This document shows positions 20,137-47,842 of a stretch of DNA of 64,000 nucleotides, one piece after another (the stretch's first letter is position 1; every line of letters starts with the position of its first letter). The position numbers were made by a program, and so were the translations under genes. Below the pieces are notes generated by a model. The model was not told the origin of the DNA, did no database searches, and saw only the letters and a list, made by a program, of their open reading frames with translations. This DNA is from Alphaproteobacteria bacterium (GTDB taxonomy: Bacteria; Pseudomonadota; Alphaproteobacteria; RF32; CAG-239): positions 42,488 through 106,487 of the forward strand of contig JAZNJJ010000025.1 of assembly GCA_045577985.1 (NCBI GenBank), given 5' to 3'.

Positions 20137-21228
20137 ATGAATATTTTTACAAGACCTGTTTTGGAATTTAATTTAAGTAGATTGATAGAAAATTATAAAT
20201 TATTAGAGGAAATTATAAAACCAGCTATTCCTTCGGCTGTTATAAAAGATAATGCCTATGGTATAGGAGCAAGAGTTGTTGCAGAGCAATTGTATAAGAA
20301 TGCTAACTGTAGAAATTTTTGGGTAGCTCATGCAGTTGAGGCAGAATGTATAGTTGATGTAGTAAAAGATGCTAAAATATTTGTATTACAAGGGATTGGT
20401 AAAGATAATTTAGAATTGTTTAAAAAATATAAATTCATTCCAGTTATCAATTCTTACGAAATGTTTAAGTTTTGGAAGGATAATTCAATTGAGGGGATAA
20501 AACCTGTTATTCATGTTGAAACAGGGTTGAATCGTTTAGGCTTTAGAGAAAATGAATTAAAACAACTGAATAAAGATGAATTAAAGATGTTTGCTATGGT
20601 TATGAGTCATTTGGCTTGTGCTGATGAGAAAGATCATTTTATGAATAAACATCAATTAGAAAAATTTAATCAAATACGTAAAAAATATTTTTCGGAAATA
20701 CCTGCATCTTTATCAGCATCTGATGGGGCTTTCTTGGGAGAAGATTTTTGTTGTGATATGGTGAGACTTGGTGCTGCTATGTATGGGATAAATACGGCTC
20801 CTTATCGATTGAATCAAATGAAAAATATAATAACATTAAAAGCTCCTGTTTTGCAGGTTACAGATTTGATAAAAGGAGAATTTGTTGGATATTCTGCTAC
20901 ATATAGGGCAAGTACAAATAGAAAAATAGCAATAGTATCAATTGGTTACGGAGATGGTATTCCTCGTTCATTATCTAATGTTGGTAAAATATTTTTTAAA
21001 TGCGGAAAAAATTGGAGTGAAGCAAATATTATCGGTCGAGTTTCAATGGATAATATTATATGTGATGTTACAAATATCAAAAAAATTAAATCTGGTGATT
21101 GGGGGTATTTGATATTTGATGAATATACAGTGGATGATATAGCCAGAGATGCTGGAACAATCAGCTATGAAGTGTTATCCAGAGTTGGAAAAAATCCTCG
21201 TTTTGATAGAAAATTTACAACTAAATGA
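20137..21228 (+). CDS. alr: alanine racemase
   Basis: AVIKDNAYG, ETGLNRLG, SHLACAD, GYGDG, GRVSMD. Confidence 0.93.
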   Translation: MNIFTRPVLEFNLSRLIENYKLLEEIIKPAIPSAVIKDNAYGIGARVVAEQLYKNANCRNFWVAHAVEAECIVDVVKDAKIFVLQGIGKDNLELFKKYKFIPVINSYEMFKFWKDNSIEGIKPVIHVETGLNRLGFRENELKQLNKDELKMFAMVMSHLACADEKDHFMNKHQLEKFNQIRKKYFSEIPASLSASDGAFLGEDFCCDMVRLGAAMYGINTAPYRLNQMKNIITLKAPVLQVTDLIKGEFVGYSATYRASTNRKIAIVSIGYGDGIPRSLSNVGKIFFKCGKNWSEANIIGRVSMDNIICDVTNIKKIKSGDWGYLIFDEYTVDDIARDAGTISYEVLSRVGKNPRFDRKFTTK

Positions 21229-21337
21229 TTTTTCATAAAAAAACTTGTGAATTCTTTTCTGAAATGAGTTTTGTTTTCTGAATAAGAGTATTACATTCTA
21301 CTAAATTGTTTTAATTTGTTTTTTTAGGAAGGATAAA

Positions 21338-21625
21338 ATGAAAACTATTACCCGTGTTAGTATTACAGAAGCTATTTATGAAGAAATTGGTTTGTCTCGT
21401 AAAGATTCAGGAGATATTTTGGATATGGTTATTGAAGAAATTAGAGCTGAATTGGTAAGCGGCAAAGATGTTAAAATATCTTCATTTGGTACTTTTGGTT
21501 TGCGTAAAAAGAATGCTCGTATTGGTCGTAATCCTAAAACAGGTAAAGAAGCTGAAATTTCTCCAAGAACTGTAATTTCTTTCAAACCTTCACAAATTTT
21601 AAGAAAAGCAGTTAATCCTGCGTAA
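21338..21625 (+). CDS. ihfA: integration host factor alpha
   Basis: [36 protein letters not shown]. Confidence 0.95.
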
Positions 21626-21639
21626 ATAAAAGGTTTATT

Positions 21640-22065
21640 ATGGTTGTAAATAAGTCTAAATCTGCATTTAGAACTATTGCGGAAGTTGCTGACGATTTGG
21701 GAGTAGCGACGCATGTGTTGCGTTTTTGGGAGACAAAGTTCAATCAAATACGACCAATGAAAGCAAGTGGTGGCCGTCGTTATTACAGACCTGATGATGT
21801 TGAAGTTATAAAATTAATTAAAAGTCTTTTATATAATAATCGTTATACAATTGAGGGTGTTCAACGTTTAATTAAAGAACGAGGATTGAAGAATCTTTTA
21901 GGTTCGGAAGAGATACAGAAGGATTTTTTTGATAAATCTGAGCTAAATGATAATGTTGCAACATATAGTACAATAGAAAATGCAGAAGGTGATGTTGTAT
22001 TTAGTGAATTGAGTAAGGCTATTGCAGAATTAAAGTCTATGCGTGAAAAATTGGCTAAAATGTAG
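21640..22065 (+). CDS. MerR-family regulator (ihfA-linked)
   Basis: KS..AFRTI.EVA..L....[19 protein letters not shown]. Confidence 0.92.
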
Positions 22066-22080
22066 TGTGACAAAATATAA

Positions 22081-22121
22081 TTGACAAAAACCACTAGATG
22101 ATTTATCATTTAGTGGTTTTT
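22081..22121 (+). promoter_or_regulatory. sigma70-like promoter overlapped by an inverted repeat
   Basis: TTGACA-N17-TATCAT overlapped by AAAAACCACTAGATGAT TT ATCATTTAGTGGTTTTT. Confidence 0.55.
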
Positions 22122-22136
22122 AATTATAATTTAGAT

Positions 22137-22727
22137 ATGAATGGTGTTATTTATGAAACGGGTGTTCTTCCTAGGGAACTAGTTGAAGATCCATCAAGGA
22201 AAAATGAGTTGATGGAGTATTTGAAAGATCCTCATTTTTTTGTTGATTTAGATTGTGAACTTTTGTTGTTTCGAAATGGTTATGAAGACCACTTAATGGA
22301 ATATCTTTCTCATCATGCTTTGATGGAAAGAAATCAGTGGGTGCTCTTTGAATCTCAAAATGAAAAAGTTTTAGATTTTTATATTGAACATTGGGTATTG
22401 GCTTCTATTTATGAAAAAAAATTATGTACTCTAGAATACAGAAATAAATGGTTGATGAAGTATTTAGATTATCATAATTTTGCTGATAGTGATAATGAAA
22501 TATTATTGTTTGATGAAGGTATGGAAAATTTTAGAAGTTTCTATATTTCTCAAACATCTTTTCATTCTCGTAAAGTTGAATGTAAGCTTTTTGAACCTCA
22601 ATTTAAGGCCGATTTGGAAGCTTATATAAATAATAGAAGAATGTTCTATGCTGAGTTTGTTAATGAATTTATCAAGGTTGCGAGTCCGGAACTTGTATCA
22701 CGTTATAATTCATATAGCAAAAAATAG
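22137..22727 (+). CDS. hypothetical protein with degenerate ~25-aa repeats
   Basis: Repeating L(M/L).Y(L/I)..H.(F/L)....(E/Q)..LF units; start moved to ATG downstream of the promoter. Confidence 0.7.
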   Translation: MNGVIYETGVLPRELVEDPSRKNELMEYLKDPHFFVDLDCELLLFRNGYEDHLMEYLSHHALMERNQWVLFESQNEKVLDFYIEHWVLASIYEKKLCTLEYRNKWLMKYLDYHNFADSDNEILLFDEGMENFRSFYISQTSFHSRKVECKLFEPQFKADLEAYINNRRMFYAEFVNEFIKVASPELVSRYNSYSKK

Positions 22728-22767
22728 AATAAAAGCACTATAGATGTATATCTGTAGTGCTTTTATT
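22728..22767. terminator. bidirectional intrinsic terminator
   Basis: AATAAAAGCACTATAGAT..ATCTGTAGTGCTTTTATT between convergent genes. Confidence 0.8.
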
Positions 22768-22769
22768 TA

Positions 22770-23381
22770 TTATTGGAAAACCCAAAATATTCCTCCATCA
22801 TTCGAACAAGTATCTACAGCTACATCAACAGGCATCGGGACAGAAATATTAGATCCTCCTGAACAAGCAATAGCATAACCATTACCTACTCCACCGGAGC
22901 AGTTTCCAAGAGCTTCTTCTTCATCAGGTTCAGCAGTAGACACTATAATCACTGAATTTAATCCAGTAGTATCACGACTCCCCCAATCTTGTGTAGCAAG
23001 CTCAATACATGCTTCTTCTGATGGAATTTGGGTAAGAATTGCAAAAAAGTCACCAAGCCCGGTTATATCAAACTCTCTACCCCAAGCATTAGTCATGCTA
23101 TATCCTGAACCAAACATTTCTTTAGGGGCTAAAACAGCTTTATATAAGATTCTTCCACTTAAATTACGATAATTTTTCTGTCTTTGCCTTCCATATAACA
23201 TTCTAACATTTTGAGAAATTTGCGTAATTTGATCGATTGTTTTATTAATTCTATATTTGGTCATCGCTTTCGAGTATCCTGCAATACCACCCACAGATAA
23301 TACACCGATAATAGCGAGTACTCCAAGCATTTCAATCATTGAACGACCATTTTGATTTGTGGTTCTACACATTTTATTCAT
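22770..23381 (-). CDS. type IV pilin-like protein (copy 1)
   Basis: Class III signal NG|RSMIEMLGVLAIIGVLSVGGIAGY, PilS-like body (MTNAWG, EEACIEL); AAGGAG RBS supports start at MNKM. Confidence 0.85.
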   Translation of the reverse strand: MNKMCRTTNQNGRSMIEMLGVLAIIGVLSVGGIAGYSKAMTKYRINKTIDQITQISQNVRMLYGRQRQKNYRNLSGRILYKAVLAPKEMFGSGYSMTNAWGREFDITGLGDFFAILTQIPSEEACIELATQDWGSRDTTGLNSVIIVSTAEPDEEEALGNCSGGVGNGYAIACSGGSNISVPMPVDVAVDTCSNDGGIFWVFQ

Positions 23382-23399
23382 TATTATTCTCCTTATCTT

Positions 23400-23431
23400 T
23401 GTCCGAAAAAAAGCATCCCTTTTTTCTGACA
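23400..23431. repeat. 32-bp palindrome, pilin-1 proximal copy (3 mismatches to consensus)
   Basis: TGTCCGAAAAAAAGCATCCCTTTTTTCTGACA. Confidence 0.9.
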
Positions 23432-23455
23432 CAAAATCTTAAATTTAGAAAAAAT

Positions 23456-23468
23456 TAACCTATTGATG
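23456..23468 (-). promoter_or_regulatory. IHF-like site between palindromes
   Basis: Minus strand CATCAATAGGTTA vs consensus WATCAANNNNTTR (1 mismatch). Confidence 0.5.
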
Positions 23469-23499
23469 TTACGTTATGAGGAGAACAAATTTTAATGAA

Positions 23500-23541
23500 A
23501 AAAATGTCCGAAAAAAGGGATCCCTTTTTTCGGACATTTTT
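23500..23541. repeat. perfect 42-bp palindrome, pilin-1 distal copy
   Basis: AAAAATGTCCGAAAAAAGGGATCCCTTTTTTCGGACATTTTT. Confidence 0.95.
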
Positions 23542-23547
23542 ATTTAT

Positions 23548-23701
23548 GCTTCGATCGTAACACTACCTGCATTAGCAGGTAGATGTAGACAATCCTAAAT
23601 CTTTGATATAATGCTATATAGAATACTAAGGGCGCGAAGATTTAGGACAAGCATGGTTTGATCTAAAATGATATCACCTACTCACGTCGGTGGAAGTTCA
23701 T
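23548..23701 (+). mobile_element. structured element resembling an IS200/IS605 right end / omega-RNA remnant
   Basis: Hairpins CTACCTGC/GCAGGTAG, TCCTAAATCTT/AAGATTTAGGA and subterminal TCACCTAC-TCAC-GTCGGTGG followed by AAGTTCAT; no transposase nearby. Confidence 0.4.
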
Positions 23702-25758
23702 TAAAATGTATCTATTAAATCATCTATAGTTTGAGGGGAATTATTATCTATATTTGAAGCTTCGCTATCTATTAATTCTGCAATTTCATCAACATCTTGA
23801 TTTTTCAATCCTATAAAATTAGTTACTTTTTCTAGAAAAGATGTTTTTTTAGGAAGATTTTTAGGGGTATCTTTTATAGTTGTAATCATAATATCATGCC
23901 AGATTTCTGCCGGTAAACCACTTCCAACTATCTTATTCATTGGCTTATCATTATCATTTCCAACCCATACTGCTGTAATATATTTGTTTGTCCATCCTAT
24001 AAACCAGGCATCTCTATAATTTTGTGTTGTACCTGTTTTTCCTGCAGCAAAAATAGGTAGTTGTGCCGCTCTACCAGTTCCTTTATTTATAACATTTTCT
24101 AATATGTTTGTTAATTGCTGTACAGTTTTTGTGTTTATAATTTGTTTTTCTTTATATTTTTTACGAACATAAAGTTGGTGACCATTTTGGGTTGAGATTT
24201 CGTTTATAGCGTGTACATGTACCGATTTTCCGCCGTTGGCTATACTGGTGTATGCTGTAACCATATCTAACAACTTTACTTCATTTGTTCCTAATACCAT
24301 GGATGGAGAAAGAGAAAGTTGCGTAGATATACCCATTTTGTATGCATTTGTTGCAATGTCTTTTAATTTTAAATTTTTTGATAATACGACAGTAGCAACA
24401 TTTAAGGAATTTGTTAATGCAAAATCTAGAGTAACATCACCATAATATCGTCGACTATAGTTTTCTGGTTTCCAATTTCCGATAGTAATAGGATAATCTC
24501 TTATGGTGCTATCCGGAGTGAAGCCTTTTTCTAAAGCTGTTAAATAAACAATAGGTTTAAAAGCAGATCCAGCTTGGCGTTTTGCTTGTGTAGCTCTATT
24601 AAATTGGCTTTTATTATAATCAACACCGCCAACCATAGCTTTTATTGCTCCATTTTTATCCATAATGATAACAGCGCCTTCTGTTACATTTTTGTTTTTG
24701 AATTTTTCAATTTTGGTTTGTAAAATTGTTTCAGCTGTTTCTTGTAATTTTTGATCTAGAGTTGTCATCACTACTATATCATCTGTACGTTCTCCAATAT
24801 AGTTATTTACTTTATCGTAGACATATTGTGCAAAATGTTTGCCGCCTGAAACCCTGTATTTTTGGCCATTACTTATAGGTAGTGTTTTGGCTTCTTTATA
24901 TTGTTGTTCTGTAATAAAGTCATTCTTTAGCATATTGTGTAATACAACATTTGCTCTTTGCAGGGCAGCATCTTTTTTAAAAATAGGGTTATACCTATTA
25001 GGGGCTTTTAACATTCCAGCTAAAATAGCAGCTTCACGTAAATTTAACTCATACGAGGTTTTGTTAAAATACCAGTTTGAAGCTGCTTCTATACCATAAT
25101 TTGAGGAGCCGAAATAAACACGATTTAAATAAAGTGCAAGAATTTGATTTTTAGTTAATTTTTTCTCTAGCCAAAAAGACAATAGGAGTTCTTGGACTTT
25201 TCTCTTTATTGTTTTGTTAGGGGTTAAGAAAATGTTTTTTGCTACTTGTTGAGTTATGGTAGAAGCTCCTTGCACATAGCGTCTGTGATATAAATTTGTT
25301 AAAATTGCTCGGCTAAATCCTAATATGTCAAAACCGAAATGCTTATAAAATCGTCTATCTTCTGTAGCAATTATGGCATTGGTGATATTTTGTGGTAAAT
25401 TATCGGGATATATTGTATCGGCATAGACATTTCCAAATTTTGCTATGTCATTACCATTTTCAGCCATAATAATGGTAGATGGTTGTCTAATCTTCGAGAC
25501 AGCATCTTGAATGTTAGGCATTGTTATATAACAGTAAAAAATATAACATCCGAGTGTAATAATGCTTATAAGCAAAAGATATATGCTCCAAATGAATAGT
25601 CTCCACTTTAAAGAAGATTTTTTTGAATTTTTTTTCTTTTTTCTTGATGTTTTAGATTTTGAGCTTTTCTTTTTTTTAATTGCTTCTAAATAAATTATTT
25701 TTTGTTTATTTACTGGCATTGTTAGACTCTTAATTAATGAACGAACTCTTTTTATCAT
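23701..25758 (-). CDS. class A penicillin-binding protein (PBP1A family)
   Basis: EDRRFY.HFG, GASTITQQ..KN, GSAFK, AGKTGT; start uncertain. Confidence 0.93.
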   Translation of the reverse strand: MIKRVRSLIKSLTMPVNKQKIIYLEAIKKKKSSKSKTSRKKKKNSKKSSLKWRLFIWSIYLLLISIITLGCYIFYCYITMPNIQDAVSKIRQPSTIIMAENGNDIAKFGNVYADTIYPDNLPQNITNAIIATEDRRFYKHFGFDILGFSRAILTNLYHRRYVQGASTITQQVAKNIFLTPNKTIKRKVQELLLSFWLEKKLTKNQILALYLNRVYFGSSNYGIEAASNWYFNKTSYELNLREAAILAGMLKAPNRYNPIFKKDAALQRANVVLHNMLKNDFITEQQYKEAKTLPISNGQKYRVSGGKHFAQYVYDKVNNYIGERTDDIVVMTTLDQKLQETAETILQTKIEKFKNKNVTEGAVIIMDKNGAIKAMVGGVDYNKSQFNRATQAKRQAGSAFKPIVYLTALEKGFTPDSTIRDYPITIGNWKPENYSRRYYGDVTLDFALTNSLNVATVVLSKNLKLKDIATNAYKMGISTQLSLSPSMVLGTNEVKLLDMVTAYTSIANGGKSVHVHAINEISTQNGHQLYVRKKYKEKQIINTKTVQQLTNILENVINKGTGRAAQLPIFAAGKTGTTQNYRDAWFIGWTNKYITAVWVGNDNDKPMNKIVGSGLPAEIWHDIMITTIKDTPKNLPKKTSFLEKVTNFIGLKNQDVDEIAELIDSEASNIDNNSPQTIDDLIDTF

Positions 25759-25857
25759 ATATCAAAGAAGTAAAGATTTTATAAAGTTTGGGAGCAAATT
25801 TTAAAAAGCTTGGAGATTATAAAAATGTAATTTATATTTGTGTTAAGGAAGGTGGAT

Positions 25858-28560
25858 ATGAGTAAAGTTTGTTTGATTGATGGATCAGGATATATATTTC
25901 GAGCTTTTTATGCATTACCTACAATGACATCACCTGAAGGTGTTCCAGTTAATGCTGTGTATGGCTTTATTACAATGTTTATGCGTTTGATAAAAAATAT
26001 TAAATGTGATTATTGTGTAGTATTATTTGATGCAAAACGTCAAAATTTTCGCAATGATTTTTTTGCTGAATATAAAGCAACAAGAGCTGAAATACCAGAG
26101 TTGTTAATTCCTCAATTTGAATTGATATATAAGGCTGTTGAAGTGATGAATCTACCTTATGTGCTGCAAGAAGGATATGAGGCAGATGATTTAATTGCAA
26201 CTTACGCAAAGCAAGCTATTGAAGCAGGTCATGAAGTTGTTGTTGTTTCTGCAGATAAGGATTTAATGCAACTTATTCGTTCTGGTGTGGAATTTTACGA
26301 TGGTATGAAGGATAAGTTTTTTAATCCTGAAGATGTAAAAGAAAAATTTGGAGTTTATCCAGACAAAGTTGTTGATGTTCAAGCTCTTTCGGGAGATAAA
26401 ATTGATAATATTCCTGGTGTTCCAGGAATTGGTCCTAAGACAGCAGCAGAGTTAATAAATATGTTTGGTTCTTTGCATGGTGTTTTAGATAATGTAGAAA
26501 ATATAAAACAAGTAAAGAGAAGAGAGCTAATTGAACAACATAAAGATGATGCTCTTTTATCGTTAAAATTAGTAACGCTGAAAGACGATGTTCCTGTAGA
26601 ACATTTTTTAGAAGAATTTAAGTGTAAGGCTCCTCAATCTGATATTTTATTATCATTTATTGATAAATTAGGATTTAAAAGTATTCGCCCAAAAATTGAG
26701 AAATGGATAAGCGATAGATGTTGTGATTTAGGGGTAACAACTGTTACGCCAGAAGAAAAAATACCTCCTAAATATTATAAAGTTACGGATAGAAAAAGTT
26801 TAGAAAATTTGTATAGAAAAATTAAGGAGGCAGGAAAGTTTTCATTTTATATTTTATATAATGGAATTGAGTGTGAAGCAATTAGCTTGTCTACAGATAA
26901 AAATAGCGCTTATTATTTACCAATACCAAAGGTCAAAAATAGTGCTGATTTATTTTCATTTGAAGAATATTCTCAGTTAGATAATGAAACGGTAAGAAAA
27001 TTTATAGAGACTATTTTTAGTGATGTAAATGTTTTAAAAATAGGTTTGGCTATAAAATCGCAATGGCATGTTTTAAATAAAATTTGTGAAAAAATTCTAG
27101 ATATTTCTCCTTATGATGATGTTGCCGTTATGTCTTACGATTTAGATAGTTCTGAACATAATCATTCTCTTCAAGAATTATGTGAACATTTTCTTGATTA
27201 TAGTATTGCCGATCCGAAAATATCTGCAAAAAATAAAATAATCGATTTTAATGCTGAAGAATTCGGTGATTTTATTTTCGAAGCATCTGATTATATTTTA
27301 AGATTATATGATTTTTTTAAAGAGAGGATTTTCAACGAACATAAAAATTATGTTTATAACATGTTAGACCGACGGTTGATTAAAATTTTATTAAATATGG
27401 AAAATGAAGGAATTACTGTAAATGAAAAATGTTTAGCTGAATTAGATATTGAATTTGCCAAACAAATGGGAGTGATTGAGAAAGAGATATATATTTTAGC
27501 TGGCGAAGAATTTAATATTGCATCTCCAAAACAAATAGGTGAAATTCTTTTTACAAAATTGGGTATAAAAGGTAAGAAAACAGCTAACGGTAATTTTAAT
27601 ACAAGTGCTGAAGTATTGGAAAATTTGGCTGAAGAATATGAAATTGCCGCAAAAATATTAGAGTGGCGAACATATGCTAAGTTAAAATCTACTTACACTA
27701 CAGCCTTATTGGATGTAAAAGATAAAACGAATCGTGTGCATACTACATTTTCTCAGACAGTTGTTAATACCGGCAGACTAGCTTCATCTAATCCAAATTT
27801 ACAAAATATTCCGAATCGAACTGATATTGGTCGAAAAATAAGAGAATGTTTTGTTGCAAAAAATGGGTATAAAATTGTTGCCGCTGATTACAGTCAAATG
27901 GAGCTACGTCTATTAGCTTCTGTTGCAAATGTTAAAGCTTTGAAAGAGGCATTTGCAAATGGTGTAGATATTCATACGGCAACAGCATCTAAGGTATTTA
28001 ATTTACCATATGAAAAAGTTGATAGGGAACATAGAAGTAAAGCAAAGGCTATTAATTTTGGTATAGTATATGGTATTTCTCAATTTGGTTTGGCAAAACA
28101 GATTGATGCAACGAAAGAACAAGCCAAACAATATATAGATGCTTATTTCCAAAATATGCCTGAGGTAAAAGTTTATATGGATAAAACGATTGAATATGCG
28201 AGGAGATATGGTTATGTTCTTACTCCTATGGGACGTAAATGTTCTGTTCAGGGGATAAATGATAAAAATCATAGAATTTCATCTTTTGCAGAAAGAGCGG
28301 CGATAAATGCACCTATTCAGGGTGGTGCTGCAGATATTGTAAAATTAGCAATGGTTAGAATTGATCATGAATTAAGCAAGCATAAAATGGAAGCAAAACT
28401 TTTGTTACAAGTTCATGATGAATTAGTTTTCGAAGTTAAGGAAGAAGATGTGGTAAGATTTTCTGAATTAATTAAGAATATTATGGAAAATGTAGCAGAT
28501 ACAGATGTTAAAATGTCTGTAGATGTTGGAGTAGGAGATAATTGGTTTTCTGCTCATTAA
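25858..28560 (+). CDS. polA: DNA polymerase I
   Basis: LIDGSGYIFRAFY 5'-3' exonuclease, TGRLASSNPNLQNIP, ADYSQMELR, QVHDEL. Confidence 0.98.
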   Translation: MSKVCLIDGSGYIFRAFYALPTMTSPEGVPVNAVYGFITMFMRLIKNIKCDYCVVLFDAKRQNFRNDFFAEYKATRAEIPELLIPQFELIYKAVEVMNLPYVLQEGYEADDLIATYAKQAIEAGHEVVVVSADKDLMQLIRSGVEFYDGMKDKFFNPEDVKEKFGVYPDKVVDVQALSGDKIDNIPGVPGIGPKTAAELINMFGSLHGVLDNVENIKQVKRRELIEQHKDDALLSLKLVTLKDDVPVEHFLEEFKCKAPQSDILLSFIDKLGFKSIRPKIEKWISDRCCDLGVTTVTPEEKIPPKYYKVTDRKSLENLYRKIKEAGKFSFYILYNGIECEAISLSTDKNSAYYLPIPKVKNSADLFSFEEYSQLDNETVRKFIETIFSDVNVLKIGLAIKSQWHVLNKICEKILDISPYDDVAVMSYDLDSSEHNHSLQELCEHFLDYSIADPKISAKNKIIDFNAEEFGDFIFEASDYILRLYDFFKERIFNEHKNYVYNMLDRRLIKILLNMENEGITVNEKCLAELDIEFAKQMGVIEKEIYILAGEEFNIASPKQIGEILFTKLGIKGKKTANGNFNTSAEVLENLAEEYEIAAKILEWRTYAKLKSTYTTALLDVKDKTNRVHTTFSQTVVNTGRLASSNPNLQNIPNRTDIGRKIRECFVAKNGYKIVAADYSQMELRLLASVANVKALKEAFANGVDIHTATASKVFNLPYEKVDREHRSKAKAINFGIVYGISQFGLAKQIDATKEQAKQYIDAYFQNMPEVKVYMDKTIEYARRYGYVLTPMGRKCSVQGINDKNHRISSFAERAAINAPIQGGAADIVKLAMVRIDHELSKHKMEAKLLLQVHDELVFEVKEEDVVRFSELIKNIMENVADTDVKMSVDVGVGDNWFSAH

Positions 28561-47687: not shown

Positions 47688-47701
47688 TATAAACTCCTTT
47701 C

Positions 47702-47739
47702 AAATGTCCGAAAAAAAGGATCCTTTTTTTCGGACATTT
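47702..47739. repeat. perfect 38-bp palindrome, pilin-2 proximal copy
   Basis: AAATGTCCGAAAAAAAGGATCCTTTTTTTCGGACATTT. Confidence 0.95.
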
Positions 47740-47760
47740 TTGGGAGGATAAATATTTTTT

Positions 47761-47773
47761 TAAGATATTGAAT
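47761..47773 (-). promoter_or_regulatory. IHF-like site between palindromes
   Basis: Minus strand ATTCAATATCTTA vs WATCAANNNNTTR (1 mismatch), same offset as in locus 1. Confidence 0.5.
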
Positions 47774-47810
47774 TTATGATAAAGGGTGAAAGAGAAAAAT
47801 AGTGAATTTG

Positions 47811-47842
47811 TGTCCGAAAAAAGGGATCCCTTTTTTCGGACA
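47811..47842. repeat. perfect 32-bp palindrome, pilin-2 distal copy
   Basis: TGTCCGAAAAAAGGGATCCCTTTTTTCGGACA. Confidence 0.95.

Follow-up and report, generated by a model that had tools for sequence, protein, structure and literature searches.

Two dispersed pilin genes in a 64,000-nucleotide stretch of an alphaproteobacterial genome (GenBank contig JAZNJJ010000025.1, positions 42,488 to 106,487; hereafter, the window) are each preceded by the same pair of 32-bp palindromes, which raises the question of what such a paired element does in front of a pilus gene. A preliminary description of this DNA had proposed that a regulator or recombinase encoded elsewhere controls the pilins by looping, inversion or cassette exchange. 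Analysis of the whole genome favors inversion, because of four flipped spacers, a contig that folds back on itself and two Mpi-family recombinase genes on another contig; cassette exchange is without support, since every pilin paralog is full length with its own ribosome-binding site. With moderate confidence, we propose that each pilin gene of this family is preceded by an invertible cassette of its own, which an Mpi-like invertase flips while IHF bends the DNA.

The arrangement reported for the two window loci was recovered from the sequence, with one correction: all four copies of the 32-mer are present within three mismatches, but only the two gene-distal ones are exact (Table 1). At this threshold, the four matches in the window compare with none in 100 dinucleotide-preserving shuffles. 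Both pairs lie upstream of pilin genes, with palindrome centers 105 bp apart at locus 1 and 106 bp apart at locus 2, and the proximal palindrome is separated from the ATG by 18 and 17 nt, respectively, a gap that contains an AGGAG ribosome-binding site. The divergence of the two spacers, 73 and 74 nt long, was likewise confirmed. The open reading frames (ORFs) downstream both score above cutoff for the Pfam families PilS_N (29.1 and 40.2 bits; cutoff, 22) and Bundlin (24.4 and 36.9 bits; cutoff, 22.3), which identifies them as type IVb-like pilins; N_methyl stays below its cutoff of 21.2 bits in both (16.6 and 18.7 bits). Each protein has a short leader ending in G, followed directly by RSMIEMLGVLAIIGVLSV (a hydrophobic N-terminal helix with E at +5), and the leader, N-terminal helix and head domain of a type IV (IVb-like) pilin are thus all in place.

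We searched the source genome (1.54 Mb in 40 contigs, 31.6% GC; G000 is its contig prefix) for the palindrome. Up to three mismatches gave 75 matches per strand, compared with none for a reversed control pattern, and up to six substitutions gave 76 sites on 21 contigs, 20 of them exact. These 76 palindromes form 37 pairs and 2 single sites, counted below as 39 sites for association with genes. The centers are 105 bp apart in 23 pairs, 106 bp in 12, 107 bp in one and 185 bp in one, so that 36/37 pairs fall between 105 and 107 bp.

A pilin paralog lies downstream of 34 of the 39 sites (32 pairs and both single sites), with 16 to 19 nt between palindrome and ATG at 33 sites and 108 nt at one more. 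The element thus precedes nearly all genes of a pilin family that numbers roughly 40. The pair at C27:2245 has a pilin start downstream, where the contig ends after 66 nt; at C33:19184, the contig ends 77 nt into a long leader also found at C23:29124; and C5:58 is at the start of the folded-back contig. The pairs at C28:163439 and C2:4794, the latter atypical, adjoin GT2 glycosyltransferase genes. Conversely, a tblastn search with the two window pilins as queries yielded 51 pilin-like loci. The site is present at all 34 family members of at least 43% identity with assembled upstream DNA and at none of nine divergent loci (at most 41% identity), which are probably core or minor pilins; the 17 loci without a site are these nine and eight that are truncated by contig ends. 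No assembled paralog is a truncated silent copy: each is of full length and retains both an ATG and a ribosome-binding site. Pilus ATPase, secretin and prepilin peptidase are encoded elsewhere in the genome. The presence of the site in 34/34 eligible members is the opposite of the behavior of a generic repetitive extragenic palindromic (REP) element or miniature inverted-repeat transposable element (MITE), which would be spread through intergenic DNA with no link to a gene family. A palindrome found genome-wide with no link to pilins or no fixed pair spacing had been named in the preliminary description as grounds for abandoning a pilin switch; instead, the link is tight and the spacing fixed.

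Some cassettes have distinctive surroundings. Upstream of the two GT2 glycosyltransferase genes, both on the minus strand, the cassette lies about 22 nt (G000:C28:162403-163437) and about 129 nt (G000:C2:3736-4665) from the start codon. In the atypical C2 pair, which has rimP-nusA on the side away from the glycosyltransferase gene, the spacer measures 153 nt and contains two IHF-like motifs. In a subset of the pilin paralogs, an extra conserved leader of about 108 nt separates the proximal palindrome from the ATG (G000:C23:29261-29367; also at the C33 end, the C26 start, the C13 end and the C8 start).

Read toward the gene, the cassette is composed of the flank, the distal palindrome, a spacer of 73 to 75 nt, the proximal palindrome, 6 to 8 nt, AGGAG, 7 to 8 nt and the ATG. 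The palindrome pair with its spacer spans 137 to 139 bp, and the upstream flank ends in an A-run at 24/34 loci. Three families of spacer can be distinguished: A (73 nt, with a subtype), B (74 nt) and C (73 to 74 nt). Between families, only about 40 of 73 positions agree, which is about chance for AT-rich DNA. Despite this divergence, spacer length is kept at 73 to 75 nt in 36/37 pairs. In an alignment of 36 cassettes (C2 excluded), identity reaches at least 90% in all palindrome columns but those at positions 13, 16/17 and 20, and is mostly 40 to 70% in the spacer columns, except for a central block.

Each palindrome consists of two 15-bp arms (an outer specific block, an A6 tract, and GGG or AGG) around a central dinucleotide. 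This dinucleotide is AT, and hence self-complementary, in 28/37 pairs; the other nine combine a distal TT with a proximal AA, and in all nine one site is the exact inverted repeat of its partner (32/32). Conservation of the 76 copies is at the nucleotide level, with almost no compensatory changes in the stem. A search of Rfam returned no family at gathering score and only spurious hairpin-type matches.

The central block of the spacer, WTCAANNNNTTR, stands at spacer position 37 or 38 in 35/36 typical pairs, and its density genome-wide is 0.60 per kb. We take this block to correspond to the IHF consensus, WATCAANNNNTTR. In the IHF-DNA structure, the bend center lies 7 to 8 bp on the 5′ side of the consensus center; the predicted IHF bend would fall at about position 35 to 36 of a 73-nt spacer, that is, at the spacer midpoint. 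Three HU/IHF-family genes are present in the genome, including one for IHF alpha in the window, whose closeness to locus 1 is probably a coincidence.

We used the direction of the central motif as a marker of spacer orientation in the 34 gene-assigned cassettes. Thirty are in state 1 (19 of family A, 10 of B and 1 of C), both window loci among them, and four are in state 2: C14:17068 (family A), C12:31661 (family B), and C23:74525 and C28:144302 (family C). The reverse complements of the four flipped spacers match unflipped ones at 73/73, 69/74, 72/74 and 61/74 positions, showing that the flips are recent relative to spacer divergence. Flipping occurred independently at least three times, with the palindrome-to-ATG distance unchanged. 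At C12:31661, variants of the inner arms moved together with the spacer, and at C14:17068 a variant of an outer arm remained with the gene. The arm variants would fit an exchange near the palindrome center, which they constrain weakly.

The assembly itself bears on these orientations. Contig ends overlap by 141 nt (14 directional entries, equivalent to 7 joins), indicating that the assembly was built with k = 141. As this k exceeds the cassette length, the orientation of a spacer relative to its unique flank is set by real k-mers. One contig folds back on itself: on the two sides of a cassette, C5:1-57 and C5:195-251 are exact reverse complements. Here 141-mers join the same flank to both spacer orientations, which points to heterogeneity in the population or to chimeric reads.

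Two further features of the assembly were observed. The end of G000:C24 and the start of G000:C39 carry the same tRNA-plus-terminator flank running into the distal palindrome, whose position 4 differs between the two, and on C39 the variant is found in the left arms of both palindromes; this suggests strain heterogeneity or conversion between paired sites. The contig graph also branches inside pilin genes, with C3 leading to C27 or C1 and C17 to C25 or C10 through 141-nt overlaps. The branches reflect either stretches of at least 141 nt that paralogs have in common or alternative C-terminal halves carried at one locus in the population.

Candidate enzymes are encoded in the genome, which has matches to four tyrosine-type and three serine-type recombinases. 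Two of the serine-type matches, SR1 (234 aa, G000:C28:47715-48416) and SR2 (226 aa, C28:69375-69959), match NCBIfam NF009949, “master DNA invertase Mpi family serine-type recombinase,” with 291.6 and 291.1 bits (cutoff, 272). Both contain the active-site motif YIRVST with the catalytic serine, and their best matches in the PDB are DNA invertases. The two proteins are 56% identical, and their genes bracket a 22-kb stretch with three cassettes. Mpi-family genes are found in 25/30 other genomes of the genus. Even the closest relatives of SR1 do not exceed 69% identity, a sequence divergence that would be compatible with a species-specific site, and no more than compatible.

In the mechanism that we propose, the palindrome pair and its spacer make up an inverton of 137 to 139 bp directly before one pilin gene. 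Each 32-bp palindrome would be a complete crossover site for a dimer of a serine invertase, the enzyme being one or both of the Mpi-family recombinases of contig C28. IHF bound to the mid-spacer motif would make a U-turn that juxtaposes the sites, 105 to 106 bp apart. Exchange of strands at the centers of the palindromes would then flip the spacer of 73 to 75 nt plus the inner arms and reorient a directional signal, presumably a promoter, relative to the gene. With such a signal in its own spacer, each gene would switch independently, so that about 35 pilin paralogs and at least one glycosyltransferase gene (the second has the atypical pair) could give the gut symbiont a combinatorially variable pilus surface. 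We lean slightly toward the majority orientation being OFF, because 30 co-expressed major-pilin paralogs seem unlikely and because the sole TTGA-type hexamer in the spacer faces the gene in the minority state. A more specific version of the proposal, which we put forward tentatively and at rather less than an even chance, is a “hairpin-synapse” inverton: self-palindromic 32-mer sites, an IHF U-turn of the 73-nt spacer, and an Mpi-like invertase that needs no enhancer and acts on a shorter segment than any serine invertase is known to use. Some 37 copies of this device, serving about 35 pilins and enzymes that glycosylate the pilus or the surface, would have arisen in a single species.

Several observations weigh against inversion by an Mpi-like enzyme. 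Consensus scans found no convincing sigma-70 promoter in the spacer in either direction; promoter-like matches are no commoner in spacers than in shuffled sequence, and inspection by eye of both orientations of the three spacer families revealed no consistent −35/−10 pair. A T-run lies beside the palindrome at opposite ends in families A and B, so that its placement provides no consistent ON/OFF logic; a T-run at the distal palindrome was considered as a mark of the OFF state and rejected because the run is at the opposite end in family B. A serine invertase needs inverted centers for inversion. The AT-centered sites of 28/37 pairs are without polarity, and a serine recombinase could therefore delete as easily as invert at them; the two single sites (C17:16283 and C28:93285, each 19 nt from a pilin ATG) may be products of deletion between paired sites. 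To our knowledge, the 105 bp between centers is shorter than the substrates of characterized serine invertases. Hin-type enzymes need a Fis-bound enhancer, and no Fis-type enhancer was recognized here, where the segment is 105 bp rather than kilobase sized.

Other points concern the enzyme and the record of the flips. Mpi-family genes are common in the genus, yet the palindrome occurs in none of the 24 genus genomes searched for it, which leaves the link between recombinase and site circumstantial. The SR2 gene lies between an ORF resembling a phage terminase large subunit (439 aa) and a GT2 glycosyltransferase gene (G000:C28:68031-71453), and this neighborhood may be a prophage remnant. The crossover would be limited to positions 13 to 19 of 32 only if both informative loci are pooled, a weak constraint. 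Rare accidental flips could likewise produce the 30:4 orientation bias, and the fold-back contig could stem from chimeric reads. Lastly, 20 public datasets from eight studies contain this genome as Logan contigs, with no RNA among them. In four runs covering window positions 21000 to 27000, Logan contigs (k = 31) end at palindromes and family repeats, with joints and loose ends coming from paralogous loci; because they break at the palindromes, spacer orientation is not linkable to the flanks at a single locus.

The palindromes also have properties that call for no rearrangement. The distal palindromes of both window loci score as terminator-like (hairpin plus T-run), that of locus 1 with its flanking A-run/T-run forming a site at 23500-23541 downstream of a PBP1A-like gene (23701-25758, minus strand), and the proximal palindromes are without a T-run. 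Both palindromes fold as long hairpins (−57.1 kcal/mol for a 201-nt stretch; z-score, −6.0). On the basis of these predicted hairpins and terminator scores, the palindromes probably have a second function as insulating terminators and as a stem in the 5′ leader. This role leaves the nucleotide-level conservation, the fixed length, the midpoint motif and the flips unexplained. The same features could nevertheless belong to a static regulatory unit that spread with pilin gene duplication and consists of a distal bidirectional intrinsic terminator or insulator, a proximal leader hairpin with a stabilizing or regulatory role and an IHF-dependent promoter in the spacer, the four flips being rare, accidental recombination between 32-bp inverted repeats. 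Besides the terminator-like distal palindromes and the hairpins, the A-run at the end of most upstream flanks is in keeping with such a unit, as is the orientation bias, which fits rare events. We judge it unlikely, however, since the conservation of the 76 copies exceeds what an RNA hairpin needs, the T-run is missing from proximal palindromes and varies in placement by family, and neither the strict spacer length nor a midpoint IHF motif would be required. A static unit would also leave two Mpi-family invertases without a target and the fold-back contig unexplained.

The regular spacing suits another explanation, in which a dimeric or tetrameric regulator occupies both sites as an operator pair and, helped by an IHF bend, forms a loop that silences or activates the enclosed promoter without rearrangement. 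The distance of about 10 helical turns, constant to within 1 bp in 36/37 pairs, the central IHF-like motif and the strong conservation of the palindrome would all be expected of it. Yet 32 bp of perfect dyad symmetry is long for an operator, no dedicated regulator was identified, and looping accounts neither for flipped spacers in three families nor for arm variants that move with the spacer nor for the fold-back contig, which makes this explanation distinctly improbable in our view. We give still less credence, and very little in all, to recombination between loci at the proximal palindromes, which would pass a single active promoter or expression site from one dispersed pilin gene to another, as in shufflons or the mycoplasma vsp/vsa systems. 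An identical site at a fixed distance from every ATG and the branches of the contig graph inside pilin genes agree with it, but each gene comes with a complete cassette of its own, a ribosome-binding site and a full-length ORF, and a fixed pairing at 105 to 107 bp would be unnecessary. Moreover, sites without polarity on at least 20 contigs, in both orientations, would be expected to produce large inversions or deletions. A MITE-like or REP-like selfish repeat that inserted near pilin genes by chance would be short, with inverted-repeat ends and many copies, as is the cassette. The census brings it close to refutation, because 34 of the 39 sites stand before the start codon of one gene family at one fixed distance; in addition, the palindrome was found neither in 40 relatives nor in two public contig collections, and the spacers have diverged while ends and length were kept.

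Per-gene inversion by an Mpi-like enzyme has precedents, and the preliminary description's term “undescribed” holds for the motif and the architecture and not for the principle, as multi-locus invertons under a master invertase are already described. In Bacteroides fragilis, Mpi acts on promoter invertons of capsular polysaccharide loci; mpi is described in the accessible portion of PMC10403206, and recombinases acting globally on several loci are described in that of PMC2268961. The present system resembles the Mpi invertons in having the same recombinase family in the genome (NF009949, two genes), many dispersed loci with one repeat consensus, an association with surface structures of a gut symbiont and, as we propose, locus-by-locus switching. 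Inverted repeats flank a short segment upstream of a gene, one consensus serves many loci, and a recombinase of the family, whose action on the sites we infer, is encoded. It differs in its products (type IVb-like pilins and two glycosyltransferases), in its small, low-GC genome and in its phylum, as well as in the 137-bp cassette, the self-palindromic 32-mer ends and the midpoint IHF-like motif; inversion is here proposed from sequence.

The closest match in overall logic and family size is the mpl (P35) family of Mycoplasma penetrans. Its candidate recombinases differ in being Xer-like (tyrosine type), its products are lipoproteins and not pilins, and its inverted repeats are short. The accessible portion of PMC2268961 describes 38 surface-protein genes at several chromosomal loci, for most of which an invertible promoter next to the gene is thought to provide independent switching. 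For the Hin/hix flagellar switch of Salmonella, the corresponding portion of PMC3798978 describes dyad-symmetric crossover sites that each bind two recombinase subunits, exchange at the site center and accessory DNA-bending proteins (Fis and HU); the hix sites are 26 bp long and flank about 1 kb, and a Fis-bound 65-bp enhancer and supercoiling are required. Like hix, the sites studied here are dyad symmetric, being perfect or near-perfect 32-bp palindromes that would each bind a recombinase dimer, and the nine TT/AA cassettes have asymmetric centers in inverted configuration. In contrast, the sites here are 32 bp long and 105 bp apart, most centers are self-complementary, no enhancer was found, and IHF is apparently used in its place.

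Switches of other pili share single features with the cassettes. The fimS element of Escherichia coli is a short invertible promoter before a fimbrial subunit gene, and IHF is needed for its inversion; it is a 314-bp element with 9-bp repeats at a single locus for chaperone-usher fimbriae, inverted by the tyrosine recombinases FimB and FimE. The cassettes thus resemble fimS in their position before a pilus subunit gene, their short length and the proposed use of IHF, and differ in the type of recombinase and the number of loci. The Dam/Lrp switch of Pap pili involves two GATC sites about 100 bp apart, and 28/37 pairs here likewise place two GATC-centered sites about 105 bp apart upstream of a pilus gene. 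A Pap-like Dam switch was excluded, because nine pairs are without GATC (their centers are GGTTCC and GGAACC) and because the genome, which is 99.2% complete, has no match to the Dam-family methylases (PF02086). Pilins are varied by inversion within coding DNA in the Moraxella Piv system and the R64 shufflon, and by gene conversion from silent copies in Neisseria pilE/pilS. The cassettes are like these in that type IV pilins would be varied by DNA rearrangement; unlike in these systems, the segment is noncoding and upstream, and each paralog, itself of full length, has a ribosome-binding site of its own. Silent pilin cassettes of the pilS type were accordingly rejected, all assembled paralogs having a ribosome-binding site and an ATG in addition to full length.

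The preliminary description had suggested scanning relatives for the 32-mer; the palindrome is present in 0/40 related genomes, including 0/24 of the same genus, and a degenerate 32-mer gave no match in two public collections, one of metagenome contigs and one of genome contigs. All 30 other genus members searched contain the pilin family itself, and the number of matches ranges from 3 to at least 100 per genome. The upstream regions of these pilins differ from those of the source genome, and no long inverted repeats comparable to the cassette were found upstream of pilins in four relatives. With the palindrome absent from these relatives and the upstream regions different, the cassette seems to have been invented in this species. 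Searches of the literature, including one for terms within PMC11602134, brought up no account of pilin invertons in gut Alphaproteobacteria, and the supplements of inverton surveys could list similar elements.

The pilin genes of the relatives have features of their own. At least 100 family matches were obtained in each of G012, G041 and G046, with 199 first-look candidates in G041; these genomes measure 1.2 to 2.0 Mb. In many relatives (L038, L033, L031, L027, L036, L043, L044 and others), an imperfect 16-bp palindrome (tattactaaagtaata and variants) lies about 130 to 150 nt before the pilin ATG and shortly before a canonical pilin promoter of the TTGACG/TATACT type; it may serve a regulator or recombination. 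In two further species of the genus, (CT)n runs of 7 to 11 units stand in or just before the pilin 5′ coding region, about 60 to 85 nt before the pilin match in L028 (G019:C45) and about 40 nt before it in L036 (G010:C83). By their sequence, these runs look like a different device, slipped-strand phase variation, acting on the same pilin family, and the genus appears to vary its pilins by several means.

The features of the two window loci are collected in Table 1. Between a MerR-like gene and pilin 1, an ORF of 209 aa (22098-22727, plus strand) matched no NCBIfam family.

Table 1. Features of the two cassette-bearing pilin loci and the IHF alpha gene (window coordinates)
Feature	Position	Strand	Basis
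IHF alpha subunit gene, housekeeping; candidate accessory bending factor	21338..21625	+	NCBIfam NF001401, 123.6 bits (cutoff, 111)
Pilin paralog 1, 203 aa, type IVb-like; leader MNKMCRTTNQNG then RSMIEML	22770..23381	-	ORF list, Pfam
18-nt leader with AGGAG ribosome-binding site, from proximal palindrome to ATG	23382..23399	-	Sequence; 16- to 19-nt arrangement at 33 sites
Gene-proximal palindrome, locus 1, 3 mismatches; candidate crossover site and 5′ leader RNA hairpin	23400..23431	.	Sequence, folding
73-nt spacer, family A, majority orientation (state 1); proposed invertible segment	23432..23504	-	Spacer comparison
IHF-consensus-like motif CATCAATAGGTTA, spacer positions 37-49; most conserved spacer block	23456..23468	-	Motif search
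Gene-distal palindrome, locus 1, exact core	23505..23536	.	Sequence
Pilin paralog 2, 210 aa	47055..47687	-	ORF list, Pfam
17-nt leader with AGGAG ribosome-binding site	47688..47704	-	Sequence
Gene-proximal palindrome, locus 2, 2 mismatches, center AGGATCCT	47705..47736	.	Sequence
74-nt spacer, family B, majority orientation (state 1)	47737..47810	-	Spacer comparison
IHF-consensus-like motif ATTCAATATCTTA, spacer positions 38-50	47761..47773	-	Motif search
Gene-distal palindrome, locus 2, exact core; terminator-like on the plus strand	47811..47842	.	Sequence, terminator scan

If the proposed inversion is true, a gut symbiont with a 1.5-Mb genome would devote about 37 switches to one pilin family, among the largest known sets of per-gene invertons and the first tied to type IV pilins. 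The compact cassette would be an attractive minimal substrate for serine invertase synapsis over very short distances and a ready marker for pilin phase states in metagenomes. The “master invertase” strategy of Bacteroides would then also operate in another phylum, where it would act on adhesive pili, structures that govern attachment, phage susceptibility and immune recognition in the gut.

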